A stretch of DNA of 64,000 nt from the IMG/VR virus record IMGVR_UViG_3300009614_000107, one strand, 5' to 3'. This document shows, one piece after another, positions 5,015 to 63,345 of this stretch (positions are counted from its first letter, which is position 1; every line of letters begins with the position of its first letter). The DNA comes from a virus (lineage: Duplodnaviria > Heunggongvirae > Uroviricota > Caudoviricetes). The notes under the pieces are model-generated. The model had not been told where the DNA came from. It ran no database searches and saw only the letters and a list, made by a program, of their open reading frames with translations. Position numbers and translations under genes: made by a program.

Positions 5015-6157
5015 CTACTCTACTGCTCTCTTGGTTGAAGGAGAACGAAGAATAGGCTCTGGTGGAGAAGAACGAAGAATAGGAGAAGGACCCGCACGGA
5101 TTTCAGGAGGAGAGATTCGTTCTGGCATACCTGTGTGTACCGTCTGTAGTCCAGACTTAGATTGGAACTTTGCCTCTGCTGCTGATTTGCCAGATGGTGA
5201 TTTGTAGTAACTATGTGTTATGTTTGAGTAGTAACCACCGCCAGCTATATCCTTTGATATTCCTGGTCCCTGAACAACTTGTGACTCTTTTGGCGATCTA
5301 GTACTACCAAAATCAATTGGTCCTTTAGGTGGACTTATTGGATTGCCTATATTTATTGGAACACTGCCACCACCATAGACGTAGCCACCACTCTTATTTA
5401 CACCAACCCACGCTGGCTCTTCTGCCACAGATCTATCTAGATAAAGGGAAATTCCCTTATGCTCTGCTTTTGCTTGTCTTGCGAGTTTACGTAATGCTAA
5501 ACTGTTGTCAAATGATGGCTCTGAGAAATCCATTATGTCATAGACTTCTGGATAGAAGTTCTTTATTGTTGTACGTGCTGCGTTTCTCTTGATTCTGTCT
5601 GATGAATAGGCAGCGTTAATCAGTTTTCTAACGTTTTCCTGTTCAACCTTACTCACATATTCTGTGGCTGTTGCCTTGAGTGCCTGAGCTCCAGCTTTGG
5701 TTCCTTTCTTTGCAACATCAAAAGCAACGTTTCCACCCTTAACAGCATATTTTGCACCAAGTTTGACTGCTGTTTCTCCGTGCTTTCTGATTGCCTGGAC
5801 TCCTCTTGTGGCTGCTTCCTTGGCTGTGTTTCCTATGAATGATAGGACTGAACTTATTGATGGGTCAATGAGATCAACTGCTATTGGTGTTCTTCTGCTA
5901 GTACGCTCTTCGTATGCCTCATCAAGTGCAGAAGCATATGAATCTGCAATAACTACAACTGATTCTCCGTCATCTTTCTTGTTTGAATAGATGAAATTGG
6001 CTGTAAAAGCCTTTGGTCCAATTGCCATTGCTGGCCCACCTTTTTTGGTTTTTACAACTTTTCCACCAGCACCACGTTTATATGTGCGTACTATAGTACC
6101 ATCTGTTTTCTTGTGTCCTTTTACAATGTGCTTTATCGGGTGCTTTCTTCCAGCCAT
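5015..6157 (-). CDS. basic protein with N-terminal HxVxxH tag and shared beta-beta-alpha-beta module (putative virion protein)
   Basis: N-terminus KHIVKGHKKTDGTIVRTYKRGAG; module FTANFIY...VVVIADSYASALDEAYEER; Pro/Ser-rich tail. Confidence 0.65.
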   Translation of the reverse strand: MAGRKHPIKHIVKGHKKTDGTIVRTYKRGAGGKVVKTKKGGPAMAIGPKAFTANFIYSNKKDDGESVVVIADSYASALDEAYEERTSRRTPIAVDLIDPSISSVLSFIGNTAKEAATRGVQAIRKHGETAVKLGAKYAVKGGNVAFDVAKKGTKAGAQALKATATEYVSKVEQENVRKLINAAYSSDRIKRNAARTTIKNFYPEVYDIMDFSEPSFDNSLALRKLARQAKAEHKGISLYLDRSVAEEPAWVGVNKSGGYVYGGGSVPINIGNPISPPKGPIDFGSTRSPKESQVVQGPGISKDIAGGGYYSNITHSYYKSPSGKSAAEAKFQSKSGLQTVHTGMPERISPPEIRAGPSPILRSSPPEPILRSPSTKRAVE

Positions 6158-6165
6158 TTTTTAGA

Positions 6166-6717
6166 TCATCCCAGAATGTTTACTTTTCCACCGTTATAGT
6201 AGTACTCAAAAGTATCTCCATCTTTTCCGATTACCCTATAATATGGAGCATAGTTATGAATTCCTGCTTGTGTCTGGTAGTAGTTTACATCATCGTAGAA
6301 GTCAATGAGTCTGAATTCCTTGAAGCTGTCAAGAACATTCTCCTCACGATAGCCGAAGGGGTTGTTTACTCTCTCCTTGCCTGACTTGCCCTTCCACTGA
6401 TCTAGAAGGAAATCTAGCCCTTTCTTGTTTTGTTCTGCTGTTAGTTTAAAACCCTCTCCATCCTCTGGCCAAGGTATATCATCATACTTTATTCTACCAG
6501 CATTGAGCCTATTTTTCCATAACTTCAAATCACTCTCAGAGACTACTCTGCCTTCTGTGCTGACAGATCTCTTCAAGTAGTGTGGAATTGTAATAGTTCT
6601 CTTGCTAGGCATTCCGTGACCACTGATGTAGTTTCTAACGTGAATTACTTTACCATCAACGTGTCTAGTATGTGAACTTACCTTGTGCTGGACTGGTGAC
6701 TTTCTTCCCATACGCAA
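6166..6717 (-). CDS. protein with N-terminal HxVxxHxR tag (putative virion protein)
   Basis: QHKVSSHTRHVDGKVIHVRNYISGHG. Confidence 0.65.
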   Translation of the reverse strand: MRMGRKSPVQHKVSSHTRHVDGKVIHVRNYISGHGMPSKRTITIPHYLKRSVSTEGRVVSESDLKLWKNRLNAGRIKYDDIPWPEDGEGFKLTAEQNKKGLDFLLDQWKGKSGKERVNNPFGYREENVLDSFKEFRLIDFYDDVNYYQTQAGIHNYAPYYRVIGKDGDTFEYYYNGGKVNILG

Positions 6718-6740
6718 TCCTCTATGGTGAGAATGTATGG

Positions 6741-6766
6741 AGCTGAATATAAAAGGTTTATGATAA
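6741..6766 (-). promoter_or_regulatory. second promoter class TTATCATAA-N4-TTTATAT/TTTATT (copies at 4649-4667, 7169-7194, 58141-58161, 63374-63399)
   Basis: Interrupted palindrome TTAT-S-ATAA at fixed spacing before a TATA-like run; found upstream of putative structural genes. Confidence 0.65.
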
Positions 6767-6777
6767 ATAAAGGACTT

Positions 6778-7140
6778 CTAGTCCTCATCATCTGTGACTC
6801 TAGTCACAAAATGCACAGCAAGATCGTCTGCTGTCCAAGTTTCGCCCTGTCTGAGGGAAAGTATCTTCATTATATCCTCTGGATCATATCCCTTATCCAT
6901 TGTGAAGAACTCTGCATTGACGAAACGCTGTTGTGGCTTGTAGTAACCGCTTCCCCATACTGCAAGGTAGTCTTTCTTTTCCTTATTAACACCACCATAA
7001 TCGAGATATCTGGACGGTAAACCGACCTCTCTTCTTGGTTTGAATCCCTGACCACGATAGTGTCTATGAACATAAACTTTGTGTCCATCTACAAGTCTGG
7101 TATGTGCCTGGACAACGTGTCTTGTTACTTTCTTTGCCAC
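6778..7140 (-). CDS. protein with N-terminal HxVxxHxR tag (putative virion protein)
   Basis: RHVVQAHTRLVDGHKVYVHRHYRGQG; GTG start. Confidence 0.65.
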   Translation of the reverse strand: MAKKVTRHVVQAHTRLVDGHKVYVHRHYRGQGFKPRREVGLPSRYLDYGGVNKEKKDYLAVWGSGYYKPQQRFVNAEFFTMDKGYDPEDIMKILSLRQGETWTADDLAVHFVTRVTDDED

Positions 7141-7200
7141 ACTGTGTCGCCTTTGCAGAGAATATGGTAGCTGAATATAAAAAGTTTATGATAATTAATC

Positions 7201-7611
7201 TTACTTCTTCATCACAGCAGTTCCAACTGCTGCTCCGATTATGAGGCAGACTATAACAGACCAGAACATACACTGCTGGATTGAAGCTGGTGCAAGCATT
7301 GCATCTGTTAGATAGCCTTCATTATGTAGTGCATTGAGAAGGAATGCAACACTTACTCCTATTCCACCGAAAGCAGCAACAACAAAAATTGGGCTGTCAC
7401 TGGACTTTGTTAGAAGGAAGAGACTGATCATTAGAGCAAAGATGAAAGGGAATACATTGATCAGGCTTTTTGACATAGCATCTGTAAACCCAAATGCTGG
7501 ACCATATAGGATTAAGAACATTATGATTACTATTACAACTAACACTATTACAGCAAATGTTCCTACTCCTCTGAGATCTCCCATATCAAATCCACGTTTA
7601 TGTCTGCCCAT
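7201..7611 (-). CDS. 4-TM membrane protein
   Basis: 136 aa, four hydrophobic helices. Confidence 0.65.
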   Translation of the reverse strand: MGRHKRGFDMGDLRGVGTFAVIVLVVIVIIMFLILYGPAFGFTDAMSKSLINVFPFIFALMISLFLLTKSSDSPIFVVAAFGGIGVSVAFLLNALHNEGYLTDAMLAPASIQQCMFWSVIVCLIIGAAVGTAVMKK

Positions 7612-7949
7612 TACCTATTTCTCCTTCTAAATACTACTATGTATAATGCTACCACAACCACACCTATAAATATCACCCACCAAGGGAAGCCCCCTGTGCC
7701 AACTACATTAATAATAGATGTAGATGTGTAGAGTGTTGTGCATGTTGTAAAATTATTAAATGTACTAGTTGTGTTCAGTGTTGCTGTAGTTACATAAGTT
7801 GTCACAGTTGATGATAATATAGCTGTGGCAGTTTCTGTTATGGTTGTATCAGTCGTGGTTGTTGTATCACAGAAGCAAATAATAGGAAATGTTCTAATTA
7901 AAAATATTATGAGAACAAATATTCCTAATAATTTTTTAATTTTTACCAT
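7611..7949 (-). CDS. short Thr-rich exported protein with GGFPWW-TM-RRR C-terminal anchor
   Basis: Signal peptide, poly-Thr, C-terminus GTGGFPWWVIFIGVVVVALYIVVFRRRNR. Confidence 0.7.
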   Translation of the reverse strand: MVKIKKLLGIFVLIIFLIRTFPIICFCDTTTTTDTTITETATAILSSTVTTYVTTATLNTTSTFNNFTTCTTLYTSTSIINVVGTGGFPWWVIFIGVVVVALYIVVFRRRNR

Positions 7950-7951
7950 AC

Positions 7952-12886: not shown

Positions 12887-13104
12887 CTAGAGAACCTTCT
12901 TCTTTCGCTCGTTTCGCCAAATTCTCATATATTCCTTATGGTAAGTTTGAGGATCCACGCAACTACGTACCTCAATTGCCTTATCTCTATGTTTGTACTG
13001 ACGATGGTACAAGAGTGGTGATATCTTTTAACGCTGTACAATATAAAAGTAATTGTATAAAAAAGAGTTAAAGAGGAATATGATAATACTACTTTTTTAT
13101 ATTA

Positions 13105-14454: not shown

Positions 14455-14801
14455 ATCAAGACCTCCATAAGTTTAGGAATGTAGACTAATGTAGCTACTA
14501 GTACTGCTATAACGCATAGAAAAAGAACTGCTCCAGCAGACATATCTTTTACCAACTTAATATCATAATCCCTGTTGATGGTAATTCTATCACACAAATG
14601 CTCGATGGCAGTATTAAACATCTCCGCAGAATATACCATTCCAGCACAGATTAATGTGGTTGCAGACGATGCTACATCTATCGACAGAACCACATTGACC
14701 ATATAAATGCCAACTAGAGCCAACAAAAACCACTTGAGTTTTGTGTTTGCTGCTAGGGCATATCTTATTCCAAAAATCGCTTCTTTAAACATACTTTGCA
14801 C
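14445..14801 (-). CDS. dgkA: diacylglycerol/undecaprenol kinase family protein
   Basis: EMFNTAIEHLCD...KLVKDMSAGAVL signature, 3 TM. Confidence 0.85.
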   Translation of the reverse strand: MQSMFKEAIFGIRYALAANTKLKWFLLALVGIYMVNVVLSIDVASSATTLICAGMVYSAEMFNTAIEHLCDRITINRDYDIKLVKDMSAGAVLFLCVIAVLVATLVYIPKLMEVLIWK

Positions 14802-16705: not shown

Positions 16706-16745
16706 TAGAGAAAGAACTGCATTTAATTTGGTGTTGTAAACCCAT

Positions 16746-17714: not shown

Positions 17715-17745
17715 GGTAAGTTTAGATCGATAGAATTTATAAATA

Positions 17746-41489: not shown

Positions 41490-42932
41490 TTACAACTCCT
41501 TGGCTCTCTTGAGAAGATATTCTCTGGTGTTCTTCTCAGGATCCTCAATGACTTCTTCTGCTAGAGTTTTGAGGACTCTTCCGACTTCTGGTCCTCTGAA
41601 GCCAAGTTCCATTATATCACCGCCACGGATTTTGAGTGAATGCACACCTGTTGGTTCCTTCTTGGCTCGAACTTCTTTGAGTGCTTCATTGAACTCTTTA
41701 CCAAATACTCTTGTTCTAGGAGTTCCTGAACCCTTAATATCAGCTATGTTGAAGGCAACCAGATCGTCAACAAGTTCTTTGTTACCAAGTCTGTTGATGT
41801 ATCGTCTGACATCTTTTGGTTTTATCTTCTTTGAATAGGAGAAGAAATCCATATGGTGTCCTACCATCTCCTTGAGGTATTCCTTCTCAGGTGTCGAGAG
41901 TTTGAGGTTATTTGCTATTTCCTCTGCACGTTTCTCTCCGAGCTCTGCGTGTTCTTGGCTTGGCTTCTCAATATCGTGTATGAGTCCAACAAGTCTGAGG
42001 ATTGGACGTTCCTTTGGAAGTGCTTCCATTGTTTTAATGCTGTGAGTGAGCACATCGTATTTGTGGTATTTCTTTTCCTGTGGCATACCGTCAAGTCTGG
42101 TGAGTCCTGGGATTACTGTTTCCATAAGCCCAGTGTCAACCATCATTCTGACTGATTTTCCAGCTCCGTCTGTTTCAAGTGATTTGAGTAGTTCGTCACG
42201 AACTCTCTCTGCTGGAATTTTGGTAAGCAGTTTGTTTTCATCTTTGATTGCCTGAACTGTCCTTGGATCAGGCTTTGCTCCAAATCGACCAGCGAATCTC
42301 ACAAAGCGCATCATACGGAGTGGATCTTCTCTGAAGCGTTTGTGTGGATCACCTACAGCACGAAGGACGTTATTCTGGATATCCTTCTGGCCACCGAATG
42401 GGTCAATGAATTTATCGTGAATTGGATCGTAGGCTATGGCGTTTATTGTAAAGTCTCTTCTTGAGAGGTCTTTCACGACATCTGTTTCCCATTTAACTGA
42501 GCCTGGGTGTCGAGAATCTTCATACTTGCCTTCTGAGCGATATGTGGTTATCTCTATTGGAGAACCATTGAAGAGGACTGTAATTGTTCCAAACTCTTCT
42601 CCAGTGGGAATTGCTTTATATCCCTTGCTCTGAAAAAGTTTAGTTACCTCTGATGGGGTAGCATTTGTGGTTATGTCTACATCGTGAATGGGATTGCCCA
42701 TTATGAAATCTCTGGTAGCCCCACCGACAACATAACCTTCATATCCAGCATCGTGGAGAATCTGTATTACATCTCTTCCTATGAGCATTTCGGCTGGTAG
42801 ACGGGAGGTGAAGTATTTTGGTATGGTGGCGAGAGGTCGCCTTGTCTCAGTGCCTCTAACGTAGGAATGTACTCGAATACGGTTTCCATTTGGAGTTGTC
42901 CTAACGTGGGATGAGACACGGTGCTTCAGCAC
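41490..42932 (-). CDS. cca: class II CCA tRNA nucleotidyltransferase with HD domain and N-terminal HxVxxHxR tag
   Basis: YVVGGATRD, DVDITT, DLSRRDFTINAIA, EDPLRMMR, ERVRDEL, H...IHDIEKP. Confidence 0.92.
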   Translation of the reverse strand: MLKHRVSSHVRTTPNGNRIRVHSYVRGTETRRPLATIPKYFTSRLPAEMLIGRDVIQILHDAGYEGYVVGGATRDFIMGNPIHDVDITTNATPSEVTKLFQSKGYKAIPTGEEFGTITVLFNGSPIEITTYRSEGKYEDSRHPGSVKWETDVVKDLSRRDFTINAIAYDPIHDKFIDPFGGQKDIQNNVLRAVGDPHKRFREDPLRMMRFVRFAGRFGAKPDPRTVQAIKDENKLLTKIPAERVRDELLKSLETDGAGKSVRMMVDTGLMETVIPGLTRLDGMPQEKKYHKYDVLTHSIKTMEALPKERPILRLVGLIHDIEKPSQEHAELGEKRAEEIANNLKLSTPEKEYLKEMVGHHMDFFSYSKKIKPKDVRRYINRLGNKELVDDLVAFNIADIKGSGTPRTRVFGKEFNEALKEVRAKKEPTGVHSLKIRGGDIMELGFRGPEVGRVLKTLAEEVIEDPEKNTREYLLKRAKEL

Positions 42933-50721: not shown

Positions 50722-53700
50722 TTAAATTGGTGCTCCTAGTCTCAGAGCATACATTATACGGAACACCATATCTATGACGAAATTCAAGACCCTGAAAAGT
50801 ATGTCTGTGATGTAGCCGATTACCCAAGTGATTATCTGTATATCATTGATGAGGACGTATAGGAAGCCCATACCTGATCTTCTGGTTCTGTCCTCAAGAG
50901 AGTCGAACCACCAGATTAATATGAATATTGGAACTATGCCAATCCAAACTGCTACATTTAAAGTTACCCATAAGTCACCAAGACCTGTTGAAACACCGTA
51001 GACTGATTGTGAGCCACCATTTACTAGTAGTCTCATAAAGTTAAAGATGTAGAGGAAGAGGTTAATCATTGCAACAAACCAATAGAATATGCTACCGAAA
51101 ATGAAGGTAATCATACTCATAATAGCCTGTATAATTGCAATTATGTTTGTAACACTGTATGTGAAATATGTGGCAAAAGCTGTAATCATTCCCTGAACCG
51201 TGGCAACAAAGTCCTTAATTCCGAATACTGAGAATGCCTGGTTGATGATTGCTACAACTGCAAAGAATGATGTTGTTCCAGCAGATAGAAGTGCCTGTAG
51301 GAGTGGCTTCATTACGCCTTCAGTCATCATTAACATCAGGGCTGTGAGGAATCCGTTTGACATAGTTGGTTGAACAGTTGGTGTGTAAACAGGTGTGTCG
51401 ATTCCAACATTTGCACCAACTTTTGCTGGAAGAGTCTGGAAGCCCAATGAGTCATAGTTGATTAACCTCCACTGGTGGCTATCACAATTTGTTGCTCCTC
51501 CACCTTTGGCTATCTTTGCAACTTTTGCCCAGACTTTGAAGAGTTGTATGTCGTTTACGCCTATGATGTTGCTGTTCTTGTCGAGTAGATCATCCTTGAA
51601 GAGTGAATCATCTGAAAGTCCCTTTATTGGGGACCAGCTAGAGAATGGACCCCAACCACCTTCCTGCATACCATAGTATTCTGCGTTTACACGACCAGCA
51701 GCGATTGATGAACCTTCTTCTCCACCAATCCATAAGTCGATGTGTAGTGCAAATTGTGTTGTTGTGTCTGTGTGGCTGATTGCTTCGTAATAGGCATATA
51801 TCTGGTCAGTTTTGACTAAAACACCTCTGTTATACCAAGAAACATCAAGCAGAACCCAAGCCTGGTTAGGTGAGGTTAGGTGTTCACCAGCATCTCCTTT
51901 TGCTACTTCAATGTGAACTTTCCAGCCTTCTATCCAAGCACCTTTAGTCCAGTAATCTACACCATATTCTATATAACCTGTATTGTTGTGTTCAGTTGGG
52001 CAATACCAAATATCATCACCTGGATAGCCATTTGTTGTGTTCTGGAATATGTGTACCAGAATGTTTACGTGCTGGAAATTGCGCCAAGTGACATTTTCTC
52101 TAGCATAACTTCCCAGAGTTGAGTTCTTTGCTTCGAGCTCCCAAACTGTGTTGCCAGGTATTACCTGACCGTCACCAGCAGTTTGGGTTTCTGTTAATCC
52201 ACCATAGTTGTAGATGTTGAAATAATTGAGTTGGTTGAGTTCTATACCATCGTGCTGTCCTGCAATTGTTGTGTTGCAGTACATATAGAGATCTACACCA
52301 AGGGCATCCTGAACGTTCTCTGCAACATAGGTTTCCCAATCCATATTGTAGTCGTTTCCTTCAGTTGAGTTTGTTACCTGTACTTTGTTAGCGTAATTAG
52401 ATGTTACTAAACCAGTGTTGCTAACTCTATTGAAACTTAGAGTTGTGAATGAAACACCATCTGAGAAAATAACGGCCATAAAGTTAAGTGGATATGATGA
52501 ATTCTGTCTAACGAATGTTCCTAAGAAGTGGTAACTCTGTCCTGAGAATACCCAGTTTCCTGCGTTCATATCAGTTATTGATGATACTAGGTTGTATGGG
52601 AATGGAGAGATTGGCTGGAACCTAATTGTTACAGTTTGTGTTCCTACTGGAACATAGTCTAATATACGAACTTCATCTAGCAGACCACTAAAGTGACTAC
52701 TTGTTGTGACTGATGCGCCTATGTAAACTGGGTTAGCGTTTGTGTTAATTGAACCGATTGTTGGTTGTGTTAGGATTAGAGTACCATTGACATAAAGATA
52801 AACATTTGAACCATCATAAGCACCAGCAACATAGCACCAATTTTTATTTGTGACATTTGAAACTGAATCTATATTTACAGCATCAATTGTCATTCTAAGT
52901 CCGTGATTGGACAGAAGTTCTAGACCATAACATCCCTGTTTGGTTATGATACCTTGAACTCCTGTGTTGTTTGATTTTATCCAAGCTGATAGGTAGATGT
53001 TAGTTGTAATATCTAATGATGGTGAATCTGTAACTGTAACGTTGCCAATTCCATTGAAACTAAGTCCACGTCCATAATATCCAAATCCAGTTCTTTTAAC
53101 AGTTAGTGCAATTACACCATTATTACCCTTTGTGCTTGAATCTTTTGCCGTTAATCCTACTTCATCATCAAATGACATAGAAAGTTGGGCATCAATTGTT
53201 ATTATTACTACAACATTTCCACTTGGATCATCCCTTGATACTGCACCATATGGTAGTCCTGTCGAAGATGTTAATATTGTTTCTGTTGTTAGTGAACTCA
53301 ATGTTAGTGAATCTGTGGTTGTTGTGGTAAGTGTGGTTGATGTTAATTGTGTGGTTGTTTCAGTGTTTGTTGTAACTGGAGTAACATCTGTAGTACAAGC
53401 ATTTGCACTTGTAGTTGTTTCTGTAATACATGATGTTGTATATGTTATTGTAGTTGTTGTCGTTGTTTTTGTCGTTGTTGTAACAGAGAATGTAACTGAA
53501 GTTGTTGCACATGTTGTACTTGTAGGTGTTGTTGTTTCAATGGTTGTTGTTGACCAAGTTTGCCAACCAGTTCCTAATGCTGATTCAACACCACCAGTTG
53601 CGCCAAGAACACCATCAGATGATGCGTAATACTGACCAGCGCATCCGTACAAGTATTCCCAAGCTGTTGTTTGGCATCCAGTTCTTGTTAGTGTTGTTAG

Positions 53701-56700
53701 AAGAACTGTTCTTGAAGAATCTGAATATATTTTAAGTGTTAGAGTTGTACCAGTCCTCTGCATTGTAAGATAATAATAAACATTTGGAGAAATTGAATAG
53801 CCTGTTCCACCAGCACCACCAACATCATTTAGACTTAGTGTATATGCTGAACCACCATCAAAACGGAAAACAGCACCTTGGTAGCTTGTTAGTGATTCTA
53901 ATCCACCTATTATGTTTGAGACACCACACATCATTATGTAGACACTGGCGTATGCTCCAGCATTGTCTAATCTAACAGTATCATAAATTGTATAGTCACC
54001 TGTGAACCAGTTTGCACCATAATCTTGGTAGAGGTACATATGGTTCTGTCTGTGGTAGACAATGCTGATCGATGTTGGGCTGTTAATTGTAAGTCTGTTG
54101 TTTGGGTCAACTTCAACCATATCATTGTAATTTATTGTATATGCTGAGTAGGATGATGCTGTAGAAGTAGTAACTAAATTAGTATCCAAACTTGTAATTG
54201 TGGTTCCTTCAATATCTGTGGATGTAACCAGATAAGTAGTTGTTGTGAGTGTTGTTGGTGTGGTTTCTATTGTGGTTGTTGTTAATGTTGTAGTATATGA
54301 TGTTGAAGAGTAACAAGTAGTTTCTGTTGTAAATGATACTGTTCCATCAGCAGCTAAGTGGAAGAAAACATGATATGTGTTGACCTGTACTGATGCTGGT
54401 GCATTGAAAGTTATATTAAAGAAGCCATTCTTTGGTGAGCCACTACCCACTGTTACATCAGATGCGTCCTCTATCTCGATTGCTGTGAATTCTGAGTCTG
54501 GTGGTGAAAGTGTGCTTGGTAGGTTGCTTGATGTTGTTAGAGCATATTTCACATAGCCTGTAAGTCTAACTGGGAAATTTACTGGAACATATGTGCAGTT
54601 TCCAACAAAGTTTGAGGTAATTATACGTGTTATTACATTGAAATAATTAGATTGAAGTGTTAAGAAACCAAGTGTTCCACTTCCAGTACTAATAACTTTG
54701 ACTGAAATGTCATTACCCATAGCCTGTGGATAAAGCCACTCAAATCTTATTGCAAGTGTTAAAGTTCCTGTATCTCCATTTTTACCCCAAGAGCACTGTG
54801 GGCCATTTAATGTTATGAGTGTGGTTCCTGTGAAGATTGTGAATGTTGGTGCTGTGTTTAAGTTGGTTCCTCTGATTTCAAATTGTGTTGAGCCAGATAA
54901 CACACCACGTAGATAGATATCCGTAACCGAGTTTATTCCTGTTGGATCATGAACTGTTACAATAAAGTTGTAATATCTTTTTGTTGCATAGCAGTTTGAT
55001 GTATCATCCATATTTGAAATTGATGCAGTTGCTGTGAATCCTTGGCTTGTAAAAGATGCTACAATTGTGTGTGCTTCATTAACATTTGTAAATAGATAAG
55101 ATGATACTACACCAACTGATACACCGTCAACAACAACATCTGATATTGAGTAGCCTGGACTTGCTGTAATTGTAAATCCTTGGTTAGCACCAGGTGTCAC
55201 TGGAATCGAGCCAGATGGACTTATTGTACCGCTACCACTACCAACACTTGCTTCAATATCATAGGTTGTTATAGACTGAATATAGAAGAGAGAAACATCA
55301 TCCACCCAGACTGGATTGTTGTTATTTCCGTTAAATTCTATTTGTGTAATTATTAAGCCAGGGGTGAAATCTGGAAATGTATAGTGACCCCAAGTTTTTG
55401 GTGAATCTGTAACTGAAAATGTTTGCACTTGTGTTGATGCGTCATTATATGTGATTGTAACTGTAATTGTTGCAAAACCAGCATCGTTGCGAAGTAACCA
55501 GAAGTTGAGATTGCCCTGAACTGTGTTTACATCAATGTTTAATGGCTGACTATAAAAGTTGGAATATGTGAAACCTGAACGAAGTCCAGTGTGTGCATAT
55601 TGTGTACTATAGTCAACACCAGCAGACCAAGCTAGATCATTTTCGAAGCCACCATTAATTATTCCCTGTGCAAGTCCACCTGTTAGCATAAAACTATAAA
55701 CAGTGCTAAGTCCAGCCTGATTGTAATCTAAGGCGTAGAAACCACTGTTGTAGACATCTGCTACTTCATCAAGCTGTAAGAATGTTGGGAAATCACCAGT
55801 TGTTGGTAAGTTTCCAATTTGGATAGGTGTCTGATACACACCAGATATTGTTGAGGAATAGTAAAGGTTTCCATTAAATGGATCCTGATAGAGAATTGTT
55901 TTCTCAAGTGTTTGTCCATTTATTGAAATTGTTGGCATTGCGCCAAAATCTACACTTACACCCATATCGTCTATGAGTGTTGCTGAACCCCAGCCAGAAT
56001 CGTATGTGTCTGCATAAACATCAACGTGGTTTGCATTTTTATAACCGAATGTTAAGTAGGATTTTCCACTTGGATCGGTTTCGGCAGCACCAACTGACCA
56101 AGCATTTGCCCTGATGTTATATCCGAGTATTTGTGAATTATGCCAACCGTTGTTGTTATCCCATTCCTCAGAATTTAATCTGGTTGTTAATGGATTTTGC
56201 CAAATTCCTAGGAATGTGTTGACACCTTCTGCAACTGCTGTCAATTTATCGTGTCCAGCAGCAGTTGTACCAGTAATTGTTGCTAAAACGGTATAAACCG
56301 CACCACCTGACCAAACACCATTGTTTAGTGTGTTTCTTGCTGCTGTAATTGTATCTGTTCCAGTTCCAGAACTGTCATAAACATCATAAAGCACAACATC
56401 ATAATAGTTGCTTGGAGTTACTTCTATTCTACAGACACTAACCGCCTGAATGTTGTTTATACCAGCATTGGATAGGACTTGCTGGTATGGATTATCCCAA
56501 GTTATTGTTCCATCAAAGTTTGGAACACCTGTTCTATATTCTATACATCCACTATAATTTATGTTATCAATGTAAACTAAAATTATTTTATTTGTTGTAA
56601 TATCATATCTAACATCAAATGTGAATGGTGTAGGACCAGCAATTGGAACTAGAATTGTGTAATCACTCCAATTTGGATCACCAATTGGTCTTGTCTGGAA

Positions 56701-58101
56701 TACAAGATCATTAAACTGATTGACCATAAAGTACCAGTTTAAGTTAGCAGCAGTAAATGAATCACGGTTATTTCCGTCTGGTAAAGAATCAGAGTCTTTT
56801 ATTAGAGTTGTTGCAATGTTTGGGAAATACTTAGCGTAAATTCCTGTTATTGCAACAGAACCATAGTTTACTTTTAGTGGACTAGTTGTTGTGCAAACAT
56901 AGTCAATTGATGATGTCATACCATTTGTTGTTGGCCATTCACTCCAACGAATACTTGGGTAATTAACAATTCCATCTGTTTTTATAGGTGCTGGTGTTCC
57001 CCAACCATTGTTGGTTGGTTTTGTGTTAAGCCAGACACAAAGATTTAGAGATGTTGCAGCACCATACCAGATAACATATAGAGTATTACTAGAATCAACT
57101 GCTATAGTTGGTGATAATTGTGCATTGGTTGACATTCCAGCATATGTACTTATACGAACTGGATCACTCCAACCACCACCTGTATTAGCTGAAAACCATA
57201 CTTGTTCTGCTGTAGTAAATCCAGTTGCTTTTCCATAGAAAACGACATAAATATAATTATTAGAGTCAAATGCAATAGAGCCTGGGGATTGATTGTATAA
57301 ATCCATCCCAGCATATGTACTTATGACTACAGGTGTTGACCAAGAACCAGTTGAGTACTCGGAATAGTTAATTCCCTCTGCTGATGGGTTTCCAGCCGAA
57401 ATACCAGTCCAGATGACATGAACATTATTATTACCATCAACTTCAACAGATGCTACATCTTGTGGATTTCCTACCATTCCAGCACCTGTGCTGATGTAAG
57501 CTGGTGTTTCCCAAACGCCAGCAGACAGGAATGTGAACCATATTTTATCTATGCCTGTGCCATCGTTTGCGCCATCCCAGACAAGGTAAACAATATTAGT
57601 TGAACTAACAGCAATTGATGGTCTATTCTGGTTGTTATATTCCATACCAGCATTTGTGCTTATACGAACAGGTGCTGTCCAAGCACCAGATGTGTATTCC
57701 GTGAAATATATTTGTTCGTTAGTTACCAGTGGTTCTGTTGCTAAACCAGCAAATACAACAAAGATATTATCAGAACTATCAACTGCAATGGCTGGTTGCC
57801 AATTTGTATAAAGACTCATTCCTGTTTTGGTGCTGAGTTTGTGTATATATATCCAAGTTATTCCACCATCATTACTGCTTGCAGAATAAATTTGTGGGGA
57901 TCCACCTGTTGTATAAACACTAACAAGTGTATCATTGCTTAATTTCACAATTTTTCTGCCATTAGAATATGCTGTTGCATCATTAGCTGTGACTGTATCG
58001 ATTGGGGTATCTATGGTTGCAAATACCTTTAAAACAGGAAGAACAACTTGTGCTAACATTAACACAAGAATGAGTGTGGCTAGAAACTTATGAGATAGCA
58101 A
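50722..58101 (-). CDS. giant exported multidomain protein (2459 aa): propeller-like repeats, InlB-B-repeat-like domain, Thr-rich stalks, LamG-like domain, C-terminal TM helices
   Basis: TTG start and signal peptide; repeated P.IAVDS.....VVW/F..W..P..IST; TISPSGSIPVTPGANQGFTIT; LSAWIK...WCYVAGAYDG..YLYVNG...LLDEVRI. Confidence 0.85.
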   Translation of the reverse strand: MLSHKFLATLILVLMLAQVVLPVLKVFATIDTPIDTVTANDATAYSNGRKIVKLSNDTLVSVYTTGGSPQIYSASSNDGGITWIYIHKLSTKTGMSLYTNWQPAIAVDSSDNIFVVFAGLATEPLVTNEQIYFTEYTSGAWTAPVRISTNAGMEYNNQNRPSIAVSSTNIVYLVWDGANDGTGIDKIWFTFLSAGVWETPAYISTGAGMVGNPQDVASVEVDGNNNVHVIWTGISAGNPSAEGINYSEYSTGSWSTPVVISTYAGMDLYNQSPGSIAFDSNNYIYVVFYGKATGFTTAEQVWFSANTGGGWSDPVRISTYAGMSTNAQLSPTIAVDSSNTLYVIWYGAATSLNLCVWLNTKPTNNGWGTPAPIKTDGIVNYPSIRWSEWPTTNGMTSSIDYVCTTTSPLKVNYGSVAITGIYAKYFPNIATTLIKDSDSLPDGNNRDSFTAANLNWYFMVNQFNDLVFQTRPIGDPNWSDYTILVPIAGPTPFTFDVRYDITTNKIILVYIDNINYSGCIEYRTGVPNFDGTITWDNPYQQVLSNAGINNIQAVSVCRIEVTPSNYYDVVLYDVYDSSGTGTDTITAARNTLNNGVWSGGAVYTVLATITGTTAAGHDKLTAVAEGVNTFLGIWQNPLTTRLNSEEWDNNNGWHNSQILGYNIRANAWSVGAAETDPSGKSYLTFGYKNANHVDVYADTYDSGWGSATLIDDMGVSVDFGAMPTISINGQTLEKTILYQDPFNGNLYYSSTISGVYQTPIQIGNLPTTGDFPTFLQLDEVADVYNSGFYALDYNQAGLSTVYSFMLTGGLAQGIINGGFENDLAWSAGVDYSTQYAHTGLRSGFTYSNFYSQPLNIDVNTVQGNLNFWLLRNDAGFATITVTITYNDASTQVQTFSVTDSPKTWGHYTFPDFTPGLIITQIEFNGNNNNPVWVDDVSLFYIQSITTYDIEASVGSGSGTISPSGSIPVTPGANQGFTITASPGYSISDVVVDGVSVGVVSSYLFTNVNEAHTIVASFTSQGFTATASISNMDDTSNCYATKRYYNFIVTVHDPTGINSVTDIYLRGVLSGSTQFEIRGTNLNTAPTFTIFTGTTLITLNGPQCSWGKNGDTGTLTLAIRFEWLYPQAMGNDISVKVISTGSGTLGFLTLQSNYFNVITRIITSNFVGNCTYVPVNFPVRLTGYVKYALTTSSNLPSTLSPPDSEFTAIEIEDASDVTVGSGSPKNGFFNITFNAPASVQVNTYHVFFHLAADGTVSFTTETTCYSSTSYTTTLTTTTIETTPTTLTTTTYLVTSTDIEGTTITSLDTNLVTTSTASSYSAYTINYNDMVEVDPNNRLTINSPTSISIVYHRQNHMYLYQDYGANWFTGDYTIYDTVRLDNAGAYASVYIMMCGVSNIIGGLESLTSYQGAVFRFDGGSAYTLSLNDVGGAGGTGYSISPNVYYYLTMQRTGTTLTLKIYSDSSRTVLLTTLTRTGCQTTAWEYLYGCAGQYYASSDGVLGATGGVESALGTGWQTWSTTTIETTTPTSTTCATTSVTFSVTTTTKTTTTTTITYTTSCITETTTSANACTTDVTPVTTNTETTTQLTSTTLTTTTTDSLTLSSLTTETILTSSTGLPYGAVSRDDPSGNVVVIITIDAQLSMSFDDEVGLTAKDSSTKGNNGVIALTVKRTGFGYYGRGLSFNGIGNVTVTDSPSLDITTNIYLSAWIKSNNTGVQGIITKQGCYGLELLSNHGLRMTIDAVNIDSVSNVTNKNWCYVAGAYDGSNVYLYVNGTLILTQPTIGSINTNANPVYIGASVTTSSHFSGLLDEVRILDYVPVGTQTVTIRFQPISPFPYNLVSSITDMNAGNWVFSGQSYHFLGTFVRQNSSYPLNFMAVIFSDGVSFTTLSFNRVSNTGLVTSNYANKVQVTNSTEGNDYNMDWETYVAENVQDALGVDLYMYCNTTIAGQHDGIELNQLNYFNIYNYGGLTETQTAGDGQVIPGNTVWELEAKNSTLGSYARENVTWRNFQHVNILVHIFQNTTNGYPGDDIWYCPTEHNNTGYIEYGVDYWTKGAWIEGWKVHIEVAKGDAGEHLTSPNQAWVLLDVSWYNRGVLVKTDQIYAYYEAISHTDTTTQFALHIDLWIGGEEGSSIAAGRVNAEYYGMQEGGWGPFSSWSPIKGLSDDSLFKDDLLDKNSNIIGVNDIQLFKVWAKVAKIAKGGGATNCDSHQWRLINYDSLGFQTLPAKVGANVGIDTPVYTPTVQPTMSNGFLTALMLMMTEGVMKPLLQALLSAGTTSFFAVVAIINQAFSVFGIKDFVATVQGMITAFATYFTYSVTNIIAIIQAIMSMITFIFGSIFYWFVAMINLFLYIFNFMRLLVNGGSQSVYGVSTGLGDLWVTLNVAVWIGIVPIFILIWWFDSLEDRTRRSGMGFLYVLINDIQIITWVIGYITDILFRVLNFVIDMVFRIMYALRLGAPI

Positions 58102-58178
58102 ACCTCACCCGATCCATCTAAGTCTATCTGTTATAACCTTAGAATAAAGCCTTTATCATACGATTAGCATATTTACGT

Positions 58179-61100
58179 CTAACTTTGTCTCGTTATCATC
58201 GTTTCTTTTGGTGGTAATCCACTCTTTCTGTTCTGTAATCCGAATATAAGAGCAGAGTGGAAGTTCTTTGCTTGTACAGTAACCTTCTCTTGTGCATTAG
58301 GATATTGGAATTTAACAAAGAATGTAACGGGTTCATCTTCTCTTACATCCTTTTTCTGTTCCTCTCTTTGCTGGTCTTGTAATTGCTTGATTCTGAACAT
58401 TGCTGGCTGTCCAATTCTGGCTTCAATGCGACTTAGTTGTGGATCTGTTAGTATTGTTGTTAATTTTGGTAGGACGAGTTCTATTGTGTCAACGTCTAAC
58501 TTCTCAAGGATACTTGTGATTGTTTCGGCATCTAAATCATCAATAACCTTGGGAATTAAATCTACATCTACTTTCTGAACAACATCATTGATAGTATCAA
58601 AGTCTAGTTTGTTTTTAGCTATGTTTAGAGTGTCTGCATCTACATCTACTATAAATTTGTTAAGTGTTGGTGTATCAAGATTAATTATTACTTTACTAAT
58701 AGTATCTGGACTGAGGTTTGGTACTATACGTGAAAGAGGTGTGTCGCTGAGTTTTGGAAGCATTGCATTTATTTCACCAGCAGTCATTGTTGGAACTATC
58801 AAAGATAGTGCCTTATCACTAAGTGCTGGCATATTAGCTATAACATTATCAACAGTTGGATTTACTAGAGCTGGCATAGCACGATTAATCTCAATTTGTG
58901 TCATACCAGTTGCTTTGAGAACTGCATTTAGACCATCACCAAGCGGTGTGTCTACCATTGCAATTCCAGCATAAGAAATGGCATTTAGGAATGCCTGTGT
59001 ATTCCCAGCATTTGCAACTATAAATTCTGTTTTTGTTGGACCAATAGTCATTAAAGATTGAGCGTATGTCATAGCATCTTTTTCAGACATTCCTTCGAGC
59101 ATTGCCTTCTGAGTGAATGCCTGGACTTTATCTAGCTGTTCTACTTGTGCGCCAACATACTTTGAAACTTCAGCATCTGATAATCCTTGCCCAGCTAATT
59201 CCTTAGCCATAGTTCCCGTACCAGTTGCTTTTGCAAGTGTATCTGCTGGTGCTTTGATAAGTCCCTGTTCTACAGCAGACTTTGTTGCGGAATCAACAAG
59301 TTTCTTAGCCAAATCATCAGAGACACCTTTCTTGATAAGTTCGTCTGTGAGTTTGCTTGCGTCTGCTCCTTCTGAAAGTGCCTGTACTAGACCGCTTTTA
59401 GCATCCTGTGACATTGTTCCAATTATCTTTAGTGTAGCATCTCCTTCACCTAGTGGAGGAAGTTGCTGGCCAAGTGTGAATGCTGTCTTTGTTGCAATTT
59501 TTGCATTTGCTTCGGCAATTGCTTCCTCTGGAGTTGCCCCATCTGCAACTAGTTTATCAGCAATTGATTGTGTTGCACCTAGTTCTGTTTTTGCTCTTGC
59601 AATCCAATCGCTGGCTTCACTTGGTGACATACCTTCCTTGAGCAATTGTAATGTGATTCTCTTTTCATCTATACCATTTTGTAGTCCCTGAATAAACTCT
59701 TGTGCCTTACCAGCATTAGTTCCTTCCTCTGGACTGCCACCTGAGAAAAGACTGTCAACAAATCCTTTCTCTCTGTCAACATAGTCAGAAAGATTCTTTA
59801 TCCAGTTTTTGCCTTCATCTGCTTCTAGACCAAGATTTTTCTCTAATGCCTTGATCTGTTCAGGTGTGTATTTCACACCAGCTTCTAGATCATCTGCAAT
59901 TTTTAATGCGTCTTTTTCTTCGAATGGACTACTTGTGATAAATTTGTCTACAAATGTCTTTTCTTCGTTGGCTTTGGCTAAGGCTTCGTTAATCCAATCT
60001 TCAGAAGCACCTGGACTCAAGCCTTCTTTCAGTAACTGGAGTCTAACGGTTTCTGCATCTGCTCCCTCTTTAAGTTGCTTGTAAAGATCGACAGCTTTGT
60101 CACCAGATACTGTCTGCTCTGGATATCCTACACCACTCCAAGGACCACCGACACCAAGTTCCTTATAGAAGGACTTGTTGATTGAATCAACTTCCTTCAG
60201 GACATCTTCTGGTGACATATTAGCTACGTCTAGTCCTCTGGAAACCAATTCATCTAGGGTGTCCTTGCCAAAAGCGTCTACAATTGCGCCTGTGAATTTA
60301 TCTGAAGATACAGCCTTGCCCTTCATTAATTCCTCAAAGGCATCTCCATAGTTACGAACTGCTGGTTCTGCTACACCATCACCCTCAAGCAATCCGTAAA
60401 GGTACTGATCTCCTGCAATTTTTGGGTTTTCTTCCGCTAGGAACTTAGCGATATCATTTGGAATCTCCTTTGATGTAAGTCCAAATTGGACTGTCTTGGT
60501 AATTGCTGTTCCTTCTGCACTACCACCTAGCTGTCCTACACCAAAGGTTGCACTCTTTGGAGAGTCGAGTGGAGTACGTGCAATTCCAGCAGCCTCATCT
60601 GTTGAAATACCACTTTTTACTAAGTTATCAAATGTTGTCTTGGCTACTGAACGTTCTATATTTGCTTGTTTTATAAGCTGTGATGCTTCATCTTTTGTGA
60701 ATCCTCTGTCGATTAAATCCTTTGTTGCAGCCTTCTCATCTATGCCTTTATTTAGATATTCAACTGTGTCTTGTGTGAATGAACCAGACTCTGTAGCTGT
60801 TTCTGCTCTAATTCTTGCACCTGATGCTGATGAGGCTGGTCTTAATAGTGACATACCTGACTCGATACCAGCAGTTGCACCAAGTAGGTTGCCTATATCG
60901 TGGGCAGCACTATTGATAATATCCTCTGGCTTTGTACCCTGTTGCATTTCCTTGTAAACTGTCCCTGCCTCATAACCAGCCATTGAACCCCAGAGCAGTG
61001 CTTGTGCAGCTTTTGGATTGGCTTGGATGAAACTTGATATTGTGGATATTAGTTTAGGTGTGGCTACTTCAATTCCTTTGTCTGCTAAACTCTTAGCAAC

Positions 61101-62354
61101 ACTTCCTGCTAAGTTTGAAGCACCCTGTAGAGTAACACCAACAGGAAGGAAAGCCAGATAACTACCAGCAAATGTAGCTGCCCCACCACCAATGCCAAGC
61201 GCAGCTTTCTGACCAGGAGATAAGTCTTGGAAGTACTGTAGATTTTGTGTGTCGATATCTCTAAGGTGCTCTAATGGCTGTTCACCTGGAATTACAGATG
61301 CCACGAGTCTATATGGAGCAAGTAGAGCCTTTGTGAAATCACCTACGATTGCACCGTAATATTGTGATTCTTTTCCTAAGAATGAGGTTGGTTCGAAGTG
61401 CTCCTTGCCATATTCATAGATCATCTTACCCAGACCTTCCTGCTCGTCAGGAATGTTGAAACCAACACTTTTTAGAGATGCAACCTGAGCATCTGTTAGC
61501 TGGTCAACTGGTCTTGTCAGTGAATATGTCTGTTTTCCTGAAGAATCTGTTGAGGAAGTTAAAAGTCCCTGGTATTTGAGACTATCAAGTTGGGCTATCT
61601 TATTATATTGTGCTAATTCATCTTTTGAAAGCCCAGTAAATTCACGTTCCTGAGCTCTGGTTTCCGATCCTGAAAGATCTGGATTGACTGGACTGATAAC
61701 GTATTCTGGTGCATTTGTTATGCTCTGTAAGGCAAATCCAGCACTTGTGTATTGCTGTATTCCACTTTTTGCAGAGGCAACATATGCACTGTAATCCTTA
61801 TCTGTTTGGGCTTTCTGTGCGTCAAGTTTTTGTAGTTCAGTTTGTGCTTTCTGAACATTGGCTTGATATCCAGAAAATCCACCTGGATATTTTGACCAAT
61901 CATATTTAGTCTGATTCTTTATGACATCGTTGCTGGTATTAAGGAATGTAACTAGGCTTGTTTTTGTGTTGTTATAGTTCTCGGTGAATTTCTGATAATT
62001 TTGTGTTGTTTTGTCTAAATCTGATTGTATTTGGCTTGCATCTGTTTTGTAAAGTGTGGTCTTTAGTCCAGCCTGATATTTAACATCAGTTGCTTGTTTA
62101 GCCTGTGCCTTTTCCTCTGCAATGTGCAAATCTACAGGTGGAGCAGGAGTTGCAGGAACTTCTGCTGCTTTTTGTGTTCTTAACTGTTCCACTGGAATTT
62201 CTGTAACAGTTTTTGGGGAAGATATGATAGTAGATATTGGTTTATTTGTTAGTTCAGCCTCACGCAGAGCCTCAACATTAATTTCTCCTGCTGGAATTAT
62301 TGGAGTAGTTTCACCTATTTTTGCCCCTCTAGCTGCCTGTTGTGCCTCTGACAT
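58179..62354 (-). CDS. large helical-repeat protein (1391 aa), putative virion-internal or tape-measure-like
   Basis: Repeated L..G.S.EEA helix pairs, 12-aa LD.DTI..V..K repeats, central hydrophobic Gly/Ala segment. Confidence 0.65.
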   Translation of the reverse strand: MSEAQQAARGAKIGETTPIIPAGEINVEALREAELTNKPISTIISSPKTVTEIPVEQLRTQKAAEVPATPAPPVDLHIAEEKAQAKQATDVKYQAGLKTTLYKTDASQIQSDLDKTTQNYQKFTENYNNTKTSLVTFLNTSNDVIKNQTKYDWSKYPGGFSGYQANVQKAQTELQKLDAQKAQTDKDYSAYVASAKSGIQQYTSAGFALQSITNAPEYVISPVNPDLSGSETRAQEREFTGLSKDELAQYNKIAQLDSLKYQGLLTSSTDSSGKQTYSLTRPVDQLTDAQVASLKSVGFNIPDEQEGLGKMIYEYGKEHFEPTSFLGKESQYYGAIVGDFTKALLAPYRLVASVIPGEQPLEHLRDIDTQNLQYFQDLSPGQKAALGIGGGAATFAGSYLAFLPVGVTLQGASNLAGSVAKSLADKGIEVATPKLISTISSFIQANPKAAQALLWGSMAGYEAGTVYKEMQQGTKPEDIINSAAHDIGNLLGATAGIESGMSLLRPASSASGARIRAETATESGSFTQDTVEYLNKGIDEKAATKDLIDRGFTKDEASQLIKQANIERSVAKTTFDNLVKSGISTDEAAGIARTPLDSPKSATFGVGQLGGSAEGTAITKTVQFGLTSKEIPNDIAKFLAEENPKIAGDQYLYGLLEGDGVAEPAVRNYGDAFEELMKGKAVSSDKFTGAIVDAFGKDTLDELVSRGLDVANMSPEDVLKEVDSINKSFYKELGVGGPWSGVGYPEQTVSGDKAVDLYKQLKEGADAETVRLQLLKEGLSPGASEDWINEALAKANEEKTFVDKFITSSPFEEKDALKIADDLEAGVKYTPEQIKALEKNLGLEADEGKNWIKNLSDYVDREKGFVDSLFSGGSPEEGTNAGKAQEFIQGLQNGIDEKRITLQLLKEGMSPSEASDWIARAKTELGATQSIADKLVADGATPEEAIAEANAKIATKTAFTLGQQLPPLGEGDATLKIIGTMSQDAKSGLVQALSEGADASKLTDELIKKGVSDDLAKKLVDSATKSAVEQGLIKAPADTLAKATGTGTMAKELAGQGLSDAEVSKYVGAQVEQLDKVQAFTQKAMLEGMSEKDAMTYAQSLMTIGPTKTEFIVANAGNTQAFLNAISYAGIAMVDTPLGDGLNAVLKATGMTQIEINRAMPALVNPTVDNVIANMPALSDKALSLIVPTMTAGEINAMLPKLSDTPLSRIVPNLSPDTISKVIINLDTPTLNKFIVDVDADTLNIAKNKLDFDTINDVVQKVDVDLIPKVIDDLDAETITSILEKLDVDTIELVLPKLTTILTDPQLSRIEARIGQPAMFRIKQLQDQQREEQKKDVREDEPVTFFVKFQYPNAQEKVTVQAKNFHSALIFGLQNRKSGLPPKETMITRQS

Positions 62355-63025
62355 TAACTAACCTCCTCAATGCTTATTACTTTACTACCATCTGGATTGA
62401 CACTCTTCAGAGCTAGTCTTATATTCTTTGCCATAATGTACTTTGGATCCCCGTTATCAATAATGATTTTAAATCTCCTGTCTTTGATAACCTCTTCATT
62501 TTTGTTGGCTATATCAATAACCATATCGTGAATTCTTTGGCTTTTGATACCGTTTGCAATATCTTCAAGTCTGTCTGGTGGGATTGCTCTCACTATTCCA
62601 CGAATGTCTGGACCATATGAGATTATATCCATAGCCTTTGATATTTCTAAGTTGTCGAGTTCTTGAACAACAACGTCTAGAACTCTCTGGGATACCTTTG
62701 TTATCTTTCTAGCAAGCATATCCCCAGTTGGCTCATTTAAAATTTCAACAGAAAGATTGATTTCTCCAGGGGTGAACCCTCTACCAGCTAAGTCACTTCT
62801 AACTTCCTCTTCTGTTTCATCAGGTTTGACTACATCCTCAACAACTGGTGGGTGTTCTTCTGTATCTTCGTTAGTTGGATTGCTTTTTTCTGTTGATTTC
62901 ACTGGCCCACCATAGGCAACTCTAGAGTCCTGTATTGGCTGGTTTGGAATAGGAAGAGGAAAGGTTGTGCCTGTGTGGTTCTTTGTAAGGTTGTCTGGAC
63001 CGCTTGGTGTGGAAGTAATGCTCAT
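62354..63025 (-). CDS. hypothetical protein with C-terminal shared module
   Basis: 223 aa; ends FKIIIDNG...IMAKNIRLALKS. Confidence 0.6.
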   Translation of the reverse strand: MSITSTPSGPDNLTKNHTGTTFPLPIPNQPIQDSRVAYGGPVKSTEKSNPTNEDTEEHPPVVEDVVKPDETEEEVRSDLAGRGFTPGEINLSVEILNEPTGDMLARKITKVSQRVLDVVVQELDNLEISKAMDIISYGPDIRGIVRAIPPDRLEDIANGIKSQRIHDMVIDIANKNEEVIKDRRFKIIIDNGDPKYIMAKNIRLALKSVNPDGSKVISIEEVS

Positions 63026-63345
63026 TGACTTAGACTCCTCAATGTAACCGATCTAACAGCATTTGTGTTCTTTCTCTCTGTAAAACTCTTGTCTAGGGCA
63101 TCTATGAAGGTCTTGGCATCTACATTAAGGTTCTCGGAGTCCTTCCCATCGTAGACTATCATAACATCGTAGCCTGTCCCATCTGGGGCTAGATAGTTAT
63201 TGATTCCAAGTTTGATTACTTTTGTCTTTGGTGGAGCACCGTGACCTCTAACATACTGTCTGACTGGTCTATTCTCCCTTACGTGTTTGTGAACTACGTG
63301 TTTTACAGGAGATTTTCTGTGCTTTGGAGGTGCAGGAAGGGACAT
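63022..63345 (-). CDS. HxVxxHxR-tag plus shared-module protein
   Basis: KHVVHKHVRENRPVRQYVRGHG; YDVMIVY...VDAKTFIDALDKSFTER. Confidence 0.65.
   Translation of the reverse strand: MSLPAPPKHRKSPVKHVVHKHVRENRPVRQYVRGHGAPPKTKVIKLGINNYLAPDGTGYDVMIVYDGKDSENLNVDAKTFIDALDKSFTERKNTNAVRSVTLRSLSQ

Follow-up and report, generated by a model that had tools for sequence, protein, structure and literature searches.

In this study, we analysed a 64,000-nucleotide stretch of viral DNA (Caudoviricetes; IMG/VR record IMGVR_UViG_3300009614_000107), referred to below as the window, in which five proteins begin with the same short basic sequence, here called the tag. The window has nearly all its genes on one strand and corresponds to the reverse complement of positions 69,113–133,112 of a 197,240-bp contig, JAFMOA010002524.1 (JGI Ga0187878_1000020), which we call the element and whose DNA is 61% A+T. 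An earlier note on this DNA, made from the letters alone, had reported five open reading frames (ORFs) sharing an N-terminal motif, one of them a CCA-adding enzyme, and had observed that RK(S/H)P(V/I) precedes the motif in three. Both claims were confirmed. The full pattern is present at the N-termini of five minus-strand ORFs (Table 1), for which the coordinates and peptides given were correct, and the R-K-[ST]-P-type arm is found in the 380-, 183- and 107-aa ORFs, is degenerate in the 120-aa protein and is absent from the CCA enzyme. The hairpin core that defines the family (H-x-V-x-x-[HY]-x-[RK] ... [YFH]-x-[RKS]-G, in the first 40 or so residues) was found in all five. For the 183-aa ORF, the ATG at 6711 is probably the likelier start, giving 181 residues, and the public gene call concurs.

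Several analyses indicated that the five tags are not a chance resemblance. A six-frame scan of the window for H-x-V-x-x-H-x-[RK] returned six matches, five being the ORF N-termini with the complete pattern and the sixth (plus strand, 13902) a partial, unrelated match without the second half [YH]-x-[RKS]-G. The complete pattern, present five times in the window, was absent from each of 100 codon-block shuffles. Profiles built from four tags recovered the fifth in every case, with E values from 3.9e-10 to 1.6e-3 (Z=3000), and the profile of all five scored its own tags at 48–67 bits versus 6.8 bits for the next best stretch in the window and its flank. Whatever the charge of the remainder of each protein, its first 40 residues have a net charge of +7 to +12 and an isoelectric point (pI) of 11.3–11.9, and the linker that follows the tag has a mean net charge of +4.7.

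Table 1. Coordinates of the tagged genes, their tags and associated features; positions are those of the window unless prefixed L139.
Feature	Position	Strand	Remarks
Weaker class-2 promoter-like element	4643..4665	−	3 mismatches; upstream of untagged 95-aa basic protein
380-aa tagged protein	5015..6157	−	Tag, linker, beta-beta-alpha-beta module (residues 51–96, nt 5870–6007), long low-complexity tail
Tag of 380-aa protein	6065..6157	−	Residues 1–31, arm R-K-H-P
181/183-aa tagged protein	6166..6717	−	Homologues of cargo domain mostly untagged
Tag of 181/183-aa protein	6613..6711	−	Residues 1–33 from ATG at 6711, arm R-K-S-P
Class-2 promoter-like element	6742..6764	−	Upstream of 181- and 380-aa tagged genes
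120-aa tagged protein	6778..7140	−	Acidic cargo, pI 4.7 beyond residue 40
Tag of 120-aa protein	7045..7140	−	Residues 1–32, degenerate arm K-K-V-T
Class-2 promoter-like element	7170..7192	−	Upstream of 120-aa tagged gene
Tagged class II CCA-adding enzyme (by domain matches)	41490..42932	−	PolyA_pol head from residue 67, RNA-binding domain, HD
Tag of CCA-adding enzyme	42846..42932	−	Residues 1–29, hairpin core without R-K-S-P arm
Two giant proteins (1391 aa; 2459 aa)	50722..62354	−	Homologues follow small tagged protein in related elements
Beta-beta-alpha-beta module copy	58185..58328	−	C-terminus of 1391-aa protein, residues 1343–1390, E 4.5e-9
107-aa protein	63022..63345	−	Tag, disordered basic linker, beta-beta-alpha-beta domain (residues 56–107; nt 63025–63180)
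Tag of 107-aa protein	63238..63345	−	Residues 1–36, arm R-K-S-P
Class-2 promoter-like element	63375..63397	−	Upstream of 107-aa tagged gene and operon
Class-2 promoter-like elements, second cluster	L139:2715, 3180, 8130, 9950		Four more copies

The tag family extends well beyond the window. Building a profile of the motif and scanning with it, a check proposed in the earlier note, revealed a wide family that includes nine further copies on the same 197-kb contig. When the profile of the five window tags only was run against 1.84 billion protein cluster representatives (E ≤ 1e-3), 100 representatives were matched, in 95 of which the motif is N-terminal; the invariant His lies no more than 16 residues from the start in 90 of those proteins, whose lengths are 69–385 aa. 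The regions following the tag were compared for 94 proteins, of which 41 form one family, while 49 of the remaining 53 are singletons. A degenerate DNA pattern was used to collect tag-bearing contigs and matched two IMG/VR contigs, three contigs of Bathyarchaeota metagenome-assembled genomes (MAGs) and at least 119 metagenome contigs, as well as one 1.1-kb contig binned with a Desulfobacterales MAG. In 125 contigs that were fetched, a 97-tag profile identified 198 copies on proteins of 38–758 aa, 184 of which start within 8 residues of the start codon. Tagged genes in these contigs, whose G+C content is 33–56%, occur in tandem arrays of up to six, and their C-terminal parts form 82 groups unrelated to each other by BLAST.

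The tag has a characteristic layout in which the R-K-[ST]-P arm is followed by a hairpin of two strands (H-x-V-x-x-[HY]-x-R ... V-x-x-[YF]-x-R-G-x-G) and then by a flexible linker, rich in Lys and Arg, that leads to the protein it is attached to, referred to as the cargo. The family consensus is x-x-R-K-S-P-x-R-H-x-V-x-S-H-x-R-x(4-9)-V-x-S-Y-x-R-G-x-G, with H9 and G27 invariant and R3, K4, P6, V11, V21, R26 and G29 conserved in at least 90% of copies. The arm was present in 164 of 178 aligned copies, a set chosen in part by a DNA pattern that demands R-K-x-P, although R, K and P also each reached at least 90% in the independent set A3. The conserved Arg and Tyr/Phe residues are located on the hairpin strands, and insertions and deletions occur only between the two halves of the motif, that is, in the turn, which agrees with a hairpin.

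Structure prediction was consistent with this layout. The AlphaFold2 model of the 107-aa protein (60-sequence alignment) has a predicted beta-hairpin with strands at residues 14–23 and 26–33 (predicted local distance difference test, pLDDT, 84–90), followed by a disordered basic linker (residues 34–57) and then a beta-beta-alpha-beta domain. AlphaFold of the peptide alone (97 sequences), which the earlier note had also suggested, likewise predicted the hairpin, with a pLDDT of 91. The note's proposal of a portable basic beta-hairpin is therefore borne out by the charge of the N-termini, the unrelated cargoes and the high-confidence predicted fold. A fold search with the 33-residue tag model found no match in the PDB, the model being too small to be informative. 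With the 107-aa model, the C-terminal domain was matched weakly, the best match being the N-domain of eL20/LX (Z 7.1), with others to PurS, T7 Gp2 and phi29 p56; we take these matches to reflect a common beta-beta-alpha-beta arrangement in the modelled domain.

No family in Pfam, PHROGs or NCBIfam covers the tag, and the 97-tag profile had no match to PDB sequences at E ≤ 10. From these comparisons of sequence we conclude that the five N-termini are copies of a real, conserved module that is new to curated libraries. Nothing was found in single-protein searches for related loci in IMG/VR, by megablast against known phages, or in the literature on the motif in connection with archaeal viruses, and a survey of Bathyarchaeia viruses (PMC10848311) makes no mention of such a tag. 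A word look-up with one representative tagged protein, P0015, likewise retrieved no similar stretch from the other genomes compared. The novelty lies in the sequence family, which is absent from the curated libraries and literature searched; that diverse viral proteins can share an N-terminal label is already known.

Two other interpretations of the motif were rejected. Binding of Zn, as in a zinc ribbon or knuckle, was discounted since the motif has a single invariant His, with His, Tyr or Phe at the second position, and conserves no Cys. A role of the 5' coding region at the level of translation or RNA was discounted since divergence of the DNA has left the amino-acid pattern intact, the mean column identity of the tag plus upstream DNA being 53%.

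The count of five tagged proteins in the earlier note is correct for the window but is an undercount for the genome. Approximately 107 kb of the 197 kb were scanned piecewise for the tag, and nine more tagged genes (127–267 aa) were identified within ~9 kb, 30–40 kb past the right end of the window (L139:3233–12115), so that the element has at least 14 tagged genes in the portion scanned. The nine genes are arranged in three operon-like runs among small orphan genes and have no precomputed Pfam family.

Many of the tagged genes stand behind a promoter-like motif distinct from the main promoter of the element, TTTATAAATATT, for which there are 44 matches in the window. This class-2 motif, ATCATAA-N-C-N-TTTTAT-NN-TCAGC, often preceded by TTATTT, has four matches in the window versus 0.04 expected, and with the four in the second cluster (Table 1), six of eight sites immediately precede a tagged gene. 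For three tagged genes in the window, the DNA upstream also aligns well. Because no main-promoter motif interrupts the units headed by class-2 sites, 13 of the 14 tagged genes appear to be part of such units. Judging from its distribution, the class-2 motif may mark a temporal class of genes, perhaps tied to the element's own TFB.

The 107-aa protein, a member of the commonest tagged family, is encoded by the first gene of an operon, followed by genes for proteins of 223, 1391 and 2459 aa. The remainder of each tagged protein had been described as unrelated to the others, which holds for most of them; the exception is that the 380- and 107-aa proteins have a second module in common after the linker. 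This is the beta-beta-alpha-beta module of ~50 residues, which directly follows the tag and linker in the 380-aa protein (E 3e-8) and recurs at the C-terminus of the 1391-aa protein; its profile had no match in the 223-aa protein. Tagged homologues of the 380-aa protein were found in contigs L011, L124 and L133. In the 2459-aa protein (50722–58101, minus strand), a signal peptide is combined with BNR-like S-x-D-x-G-x-T-W repeats, long Thr-rich linkers, a LamG domain and, at the C-terminus, a multi-pass membrane block, features that suggest a giant surface glycoprotein anchored in the membrane. Some parts of the protein are also conserved in two complete viruses, G001 and G002. In addition, the gene order of small tagged protein, giant A and giant B is kept in those two viruses, in one Bathyarchaeota MAG contig and in three other contigs (G001, G002, L011, L093, L115 and L133). 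The giant proteins beside the small tagged protein are probably structural. Capsid, portal, terminase and prohead-protease families were not detected among the window proteins tested or in G001 and G002, a search that divergent archaeal virion genes could have escaped.

The module is found almost exclusively in viruses and mobile elements linked to Bathyarchaeia and lies outside the cellular core of that class. This assignment is based on the small number of genomes in the class with a tag, the presence of tags in complete viruses and the location of a chromosomal copy in an island of orphan genes. Of 301 sampled Bathyarchaeia genomes, four matched, with one or two copies each. The two IMG/VR viruses, complete by terminal repeats (DTR), are 40.9 and 34.1 kb long and have two tags and one tag, respectively, and three Bathyarchaeota MAGs have one or two tags each. 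The chromosomal copy, a tag-ParB_N gene, is in an orphan-gene island of ~9 kb (L132:5288–14080) on the 1-Mb Bathyarchaeota contig CAVQNT010000002.1; the island is flanked by glycoside hydrolase genes and, farther out, by genes for a ribosomal protein and a DNA ligase, and may be a degraded integrated element.

Few of the cargoes could be named with Pfam. Those that could are a second CCA enzyme, PolX palm/thumb, NTP_transf_2, DUF6932, ParB_N, a MarR-type winged helix-turn-helix (wHTH), DUF5661 and LPD29. In two other tagged families, ParB-like and HExxH motifs were read by eye, with no family match in support. The second of these includes a tagged 196-aa H-E-x-x-H protein, a possible metalloprotease on the strength of that motif, which is encoded directly upstream of the second tagged CCA gene in two contigs (L022:893–1480 and 1502–2920; L032:1039–1626 and 1648–3135).

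The best characterised cargo in the window is the 480-aa protein, which matched PF01743 (4.8e-39), PF12627 (1.3e-16), weakly HD, and phrog_2244 (2.6e-74). By these matches it is a class II CCA-adding enzyme, whose head starts only at residue 67. The earlier note had stated that cellular CCA enzymes lack such an extension, which is accurate for 116 of the 120 closest homologues; the other four are tagged and are also the nearest, with 65–100% identity. The untagged homologues have 38–47% identity, and those with a name are bacterial (Candidate Phyla Radiation (CPR), Margulisiibacteriota and WOR-1; ~40%). The CCA-adding enzymes known from archaea are of class I, and the pattern of homologues suggests that the enzyme was captured from bacteria. 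The second tagged CCA enzyme, in L032 and L022, is only 43% identical to that of the window. In a midpoint-rooted tree of tag-trimmed CCA sequences (46 rows, with 16 rows dropped by a motif filter) the tagged enzymes fell into two separate, well-supported clades, which points to at least two gains or losses of the tag. Tags are similarly scattered among relatives of the 181-aa cargo, few of whose 26 homologues have one. Four of those homologues (P0241, P0244, P0245 and P0251) have a different basic N-terminal extension, including an H-S/R-x-x-A-x-x-G-like motif in three, and judging from these extensions other elements may equip this cargo with N-terminal tags of a different kind. For neither the 181-aa cargo nor the 107-aa protein did the ESM Atlas yield a usable lead.

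We tentatively favour, at somewhat short of even chances, a role for the tag as a common address that gathers cargo at one shared viral target. The hairpin would bind that target and thereby bring all the tagged proteins together in one place. The likeliest target would be the element's own DNA or nucleoprotein, or else an assembly around the small protein that combines the tag with the beta-beta-alpha-beta domain and the adjoining giants. Enzymes gathered in this way, the CCA-adding enzyme among them, could then be co-assembled and possibly co-packaged. Binding, the nature of the target and packaging are what we infer here; the circumstantial evidence is the strict N-terminal placement, the arrays, the promoter class and the position of the small tagged protein directly upstream of the giants. 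This role is favoured because the tag is restricted to the N-terminus and is conserved residue by residue, because it is also present on cargoes that need no extra DNA-binding domain and is associated with a dedicated promoter class, and because a conserved small adaptor-like protein adjoins giant, probably structural, proteins. A prediction of a complex between the 107-aa protein and a tag alignment headed by the CCA tag gave a score of 0.01, which speaks neither for nor against binding.

Possible, though on the unlikely side, is that the module is instead a general nucleic-acid-binding clamp, in which a basic aromatic hairpin and a groove-binding R-K-[ST]-P arm raise the affinity of the cargo, with no targeting or packaging involved. 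This explanation draws on the high charge and pI of the first 40 residues, the basic linker, the Arg and Tyr/Phe conserved along the strands, the A+T-rich DNA of the element and the fact that the recognisable cargoes (CCA enzyme, PolX, nucleotidyltransferases, ParB_N and wHTH) act on nucleic acids. However, the tag is N-terminal in ~95% of cases, whereas DNA-binding add-ons are usually bound to no single terminus, and its conservation goes beyond composition to specific residues that include the non-basic His, Val and Gly. Moreover, the tag occurs on cargoes that already have DNA-binding domains as well as on acidic or small unnamed ones, and the grouping of tagged genes in arrays and behind a dedicated promoter class suggests that they act jointly. 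Should the shared target be DNA, the clamp and the common address become one.

There are several observations that weigh against a common address. Plain binding of DNA or RNA would account just as well for the strong positive charge and for cargoes related to nucleic acids. The CCA gene is situated outside the class-2 units, among genes with the main promoter, and its tag is without the R-K-S-P arm. The motif is not always N-terminal: in two small proteins, one from Streptomyces (WP_384117689.1), the copy is C-terminal and follows a membrane helix, and a 909-aa metagenomic protein has four internal hairpin cores, all without the arm. By these motif matches, the hairpin core also occurs outside an address-tag setting and is wider than the archaeal N-terminal tag. 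Lastly, with no virion gene recognised, the particle itself is an assumption.

It is improbable that the tag is a regulatory or processing signal that times the activity of co-expressed proteins, whether by self-association, as a degron at the N-terminus or as a site where a protease recognises and cuts around R-G-x-G. Its extreme N-terminal place, the near-invariant R-G-x-G followed by a flexible linker and the apparent co-regulation of tagged genes would suit such a signal, as would the HExxH protein (by eye), which is itself tagged and adjoins the tagged CCA enzyme in L022 and L032, but a structured, conserved hairpin of 30 residues exceeds the needs of known degrons or cleavage sites, and no protease partner is conserved across the elements. 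Still less probable is that the tag is a functionless by-product of gene capture behind a reusable promoter-leader-start cassette. Promoter, leader and tag do recur together at six sites in the element, and three window genes have upstream DNA that aligns, but the DNA coding for the tag has diverged (53% mean column identity over tag plus upstream DNA) with its amino-acid pattern kept, the tag persists across more than 125 contigs of 33–56% G+C, and it is found on the CCA gene in a main-promoter region and on operon-internal genes far from promoters. Partial evidence also leans towards strong purifying selection on the tag.

Among known systems, the conceptual precedent for the common address is the capsid targeting sequence (CTS) of phage T4. 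The CTS has ~10 residues, is not known to form a structured, conserved hairpin, and is cut off by the prohead protease within the scaffolded prohead of a tailed phage. In contrast, the tag described here is ~30 residues long and predicted to fold, has no sequence likeness to phage families, T-even internal-protein leaders included (PHROGs, Pfam, NCBIfam), and is found in elements in which no protease, scaffold or capsid gene was recognised. The likeness lies in a short N-terminal peptide shared by proteins of a single virus that are not otherwise related; here it is carried by at least 14 proteins of the element and by 82 cargo groups in its relatives. In T4, the CTS is the only feature common to a diverse, fast-evolving set of internal proteins (IPI–III and Alt), many of them basic and some of them enzymes or anti-defence proteins, and the peptide is portable to foreign cargo (PMC3012670).

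An AT-hook identity was rejected since the R-G-R-P core is missing and the arm reads R-K-[ST]-P. Nonetheless, the arm is, like the AT-hook and SPKK motifs, a basic Pro-bearing tetrapeptide in a flexible place and in an A+T-rich genome; it differs from them in its core sequence and in being coupled to a conserved N-terminal hairpin, and its DNA binding is only putative. The PBCV-specific basic adaptor domain (PF08789) of chloroviruses is small, basic and virus-restricted and is fused to unrelated catalytic domains, much as the tag is, although that domain is not known to be confined to the extreme N-terminus. It comes from another virus realm and host domain, and PF08789 was not among the Pfam matches at E ≤ 1 for the five window proteins or for the 82 cargo representatives. 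Polyvalent proteins of phages and conjugative elements, reportedly described by Iyer et al. in 2017, are said to string domains into one giant delivered protein. ParB-like (ParB_N), nucleotidyltransferase, LPD29, DUF5661 and HExxH (by eye) domains recall the cargoes of the tag, a likeness that comes from a few weak-to-moderate Pfam matches; here, every domain stands alone as a small protein that carries a tag of its own.

The earlier note had reasoned that the CCA enzyme would be packaged and delivered at infection, which we consider doubtful. Equally doubtful is the broader form of that idea, in which the hairpin would be the loading signal of cargo delivery by an archaeal virus, with dozens of enzymes packed and delivered along with the genome. 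The delivered set would comprise the bacterial-type CCA-adding enzyme, ParB-like proteins, nucleotidyltransferases and the putative metalloprotease, expressed from the dedicated promoter class, perhaps as read by the element's own TFB. Such a loading signal would, to our knowledge, be the first to be described for capsid targeting in an archaeal virus, and we know of no shared N-terminal routing label in archaeal viruses.

Shared N-terminal labels are a route by which viruses and secretion systems send many proteins to one place. The tag is short, sharply defined, predicted to fold by itself and present on more than 80 cargo families, making it a simple handle on uncultivated Bathyarchaeia elements, with which their accessory or effector proteins can be listed in metagenomes. 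Through its link to a second promoter class, together with the element's own TFB, timed expression in a giant archaeal element becomes testable. Should it turn out to be nothing more than a DNA-binding add-on, the tag would nevertheless represent a new small module that binds nucleic acids.

The element turns up again in at least six DNA runs from peat or wetland, and perhaps three of these are the window's own source samples; no RNA run was listed as containing it. Among the genes of the window are also those for RNA ligases, Ro60, a C5 DNA methylase, glycosylation enzymes and three giant proteins. A gene immediately upstream of the class-2 promoter that precedes the 107-aa gene encodes a 170-aa protein (63420–63932, minus strand) with a hydrophobic N-terminal segment after a short charged start, an arrangement that, by its sequence, resembles a signal or pilin-type leader.

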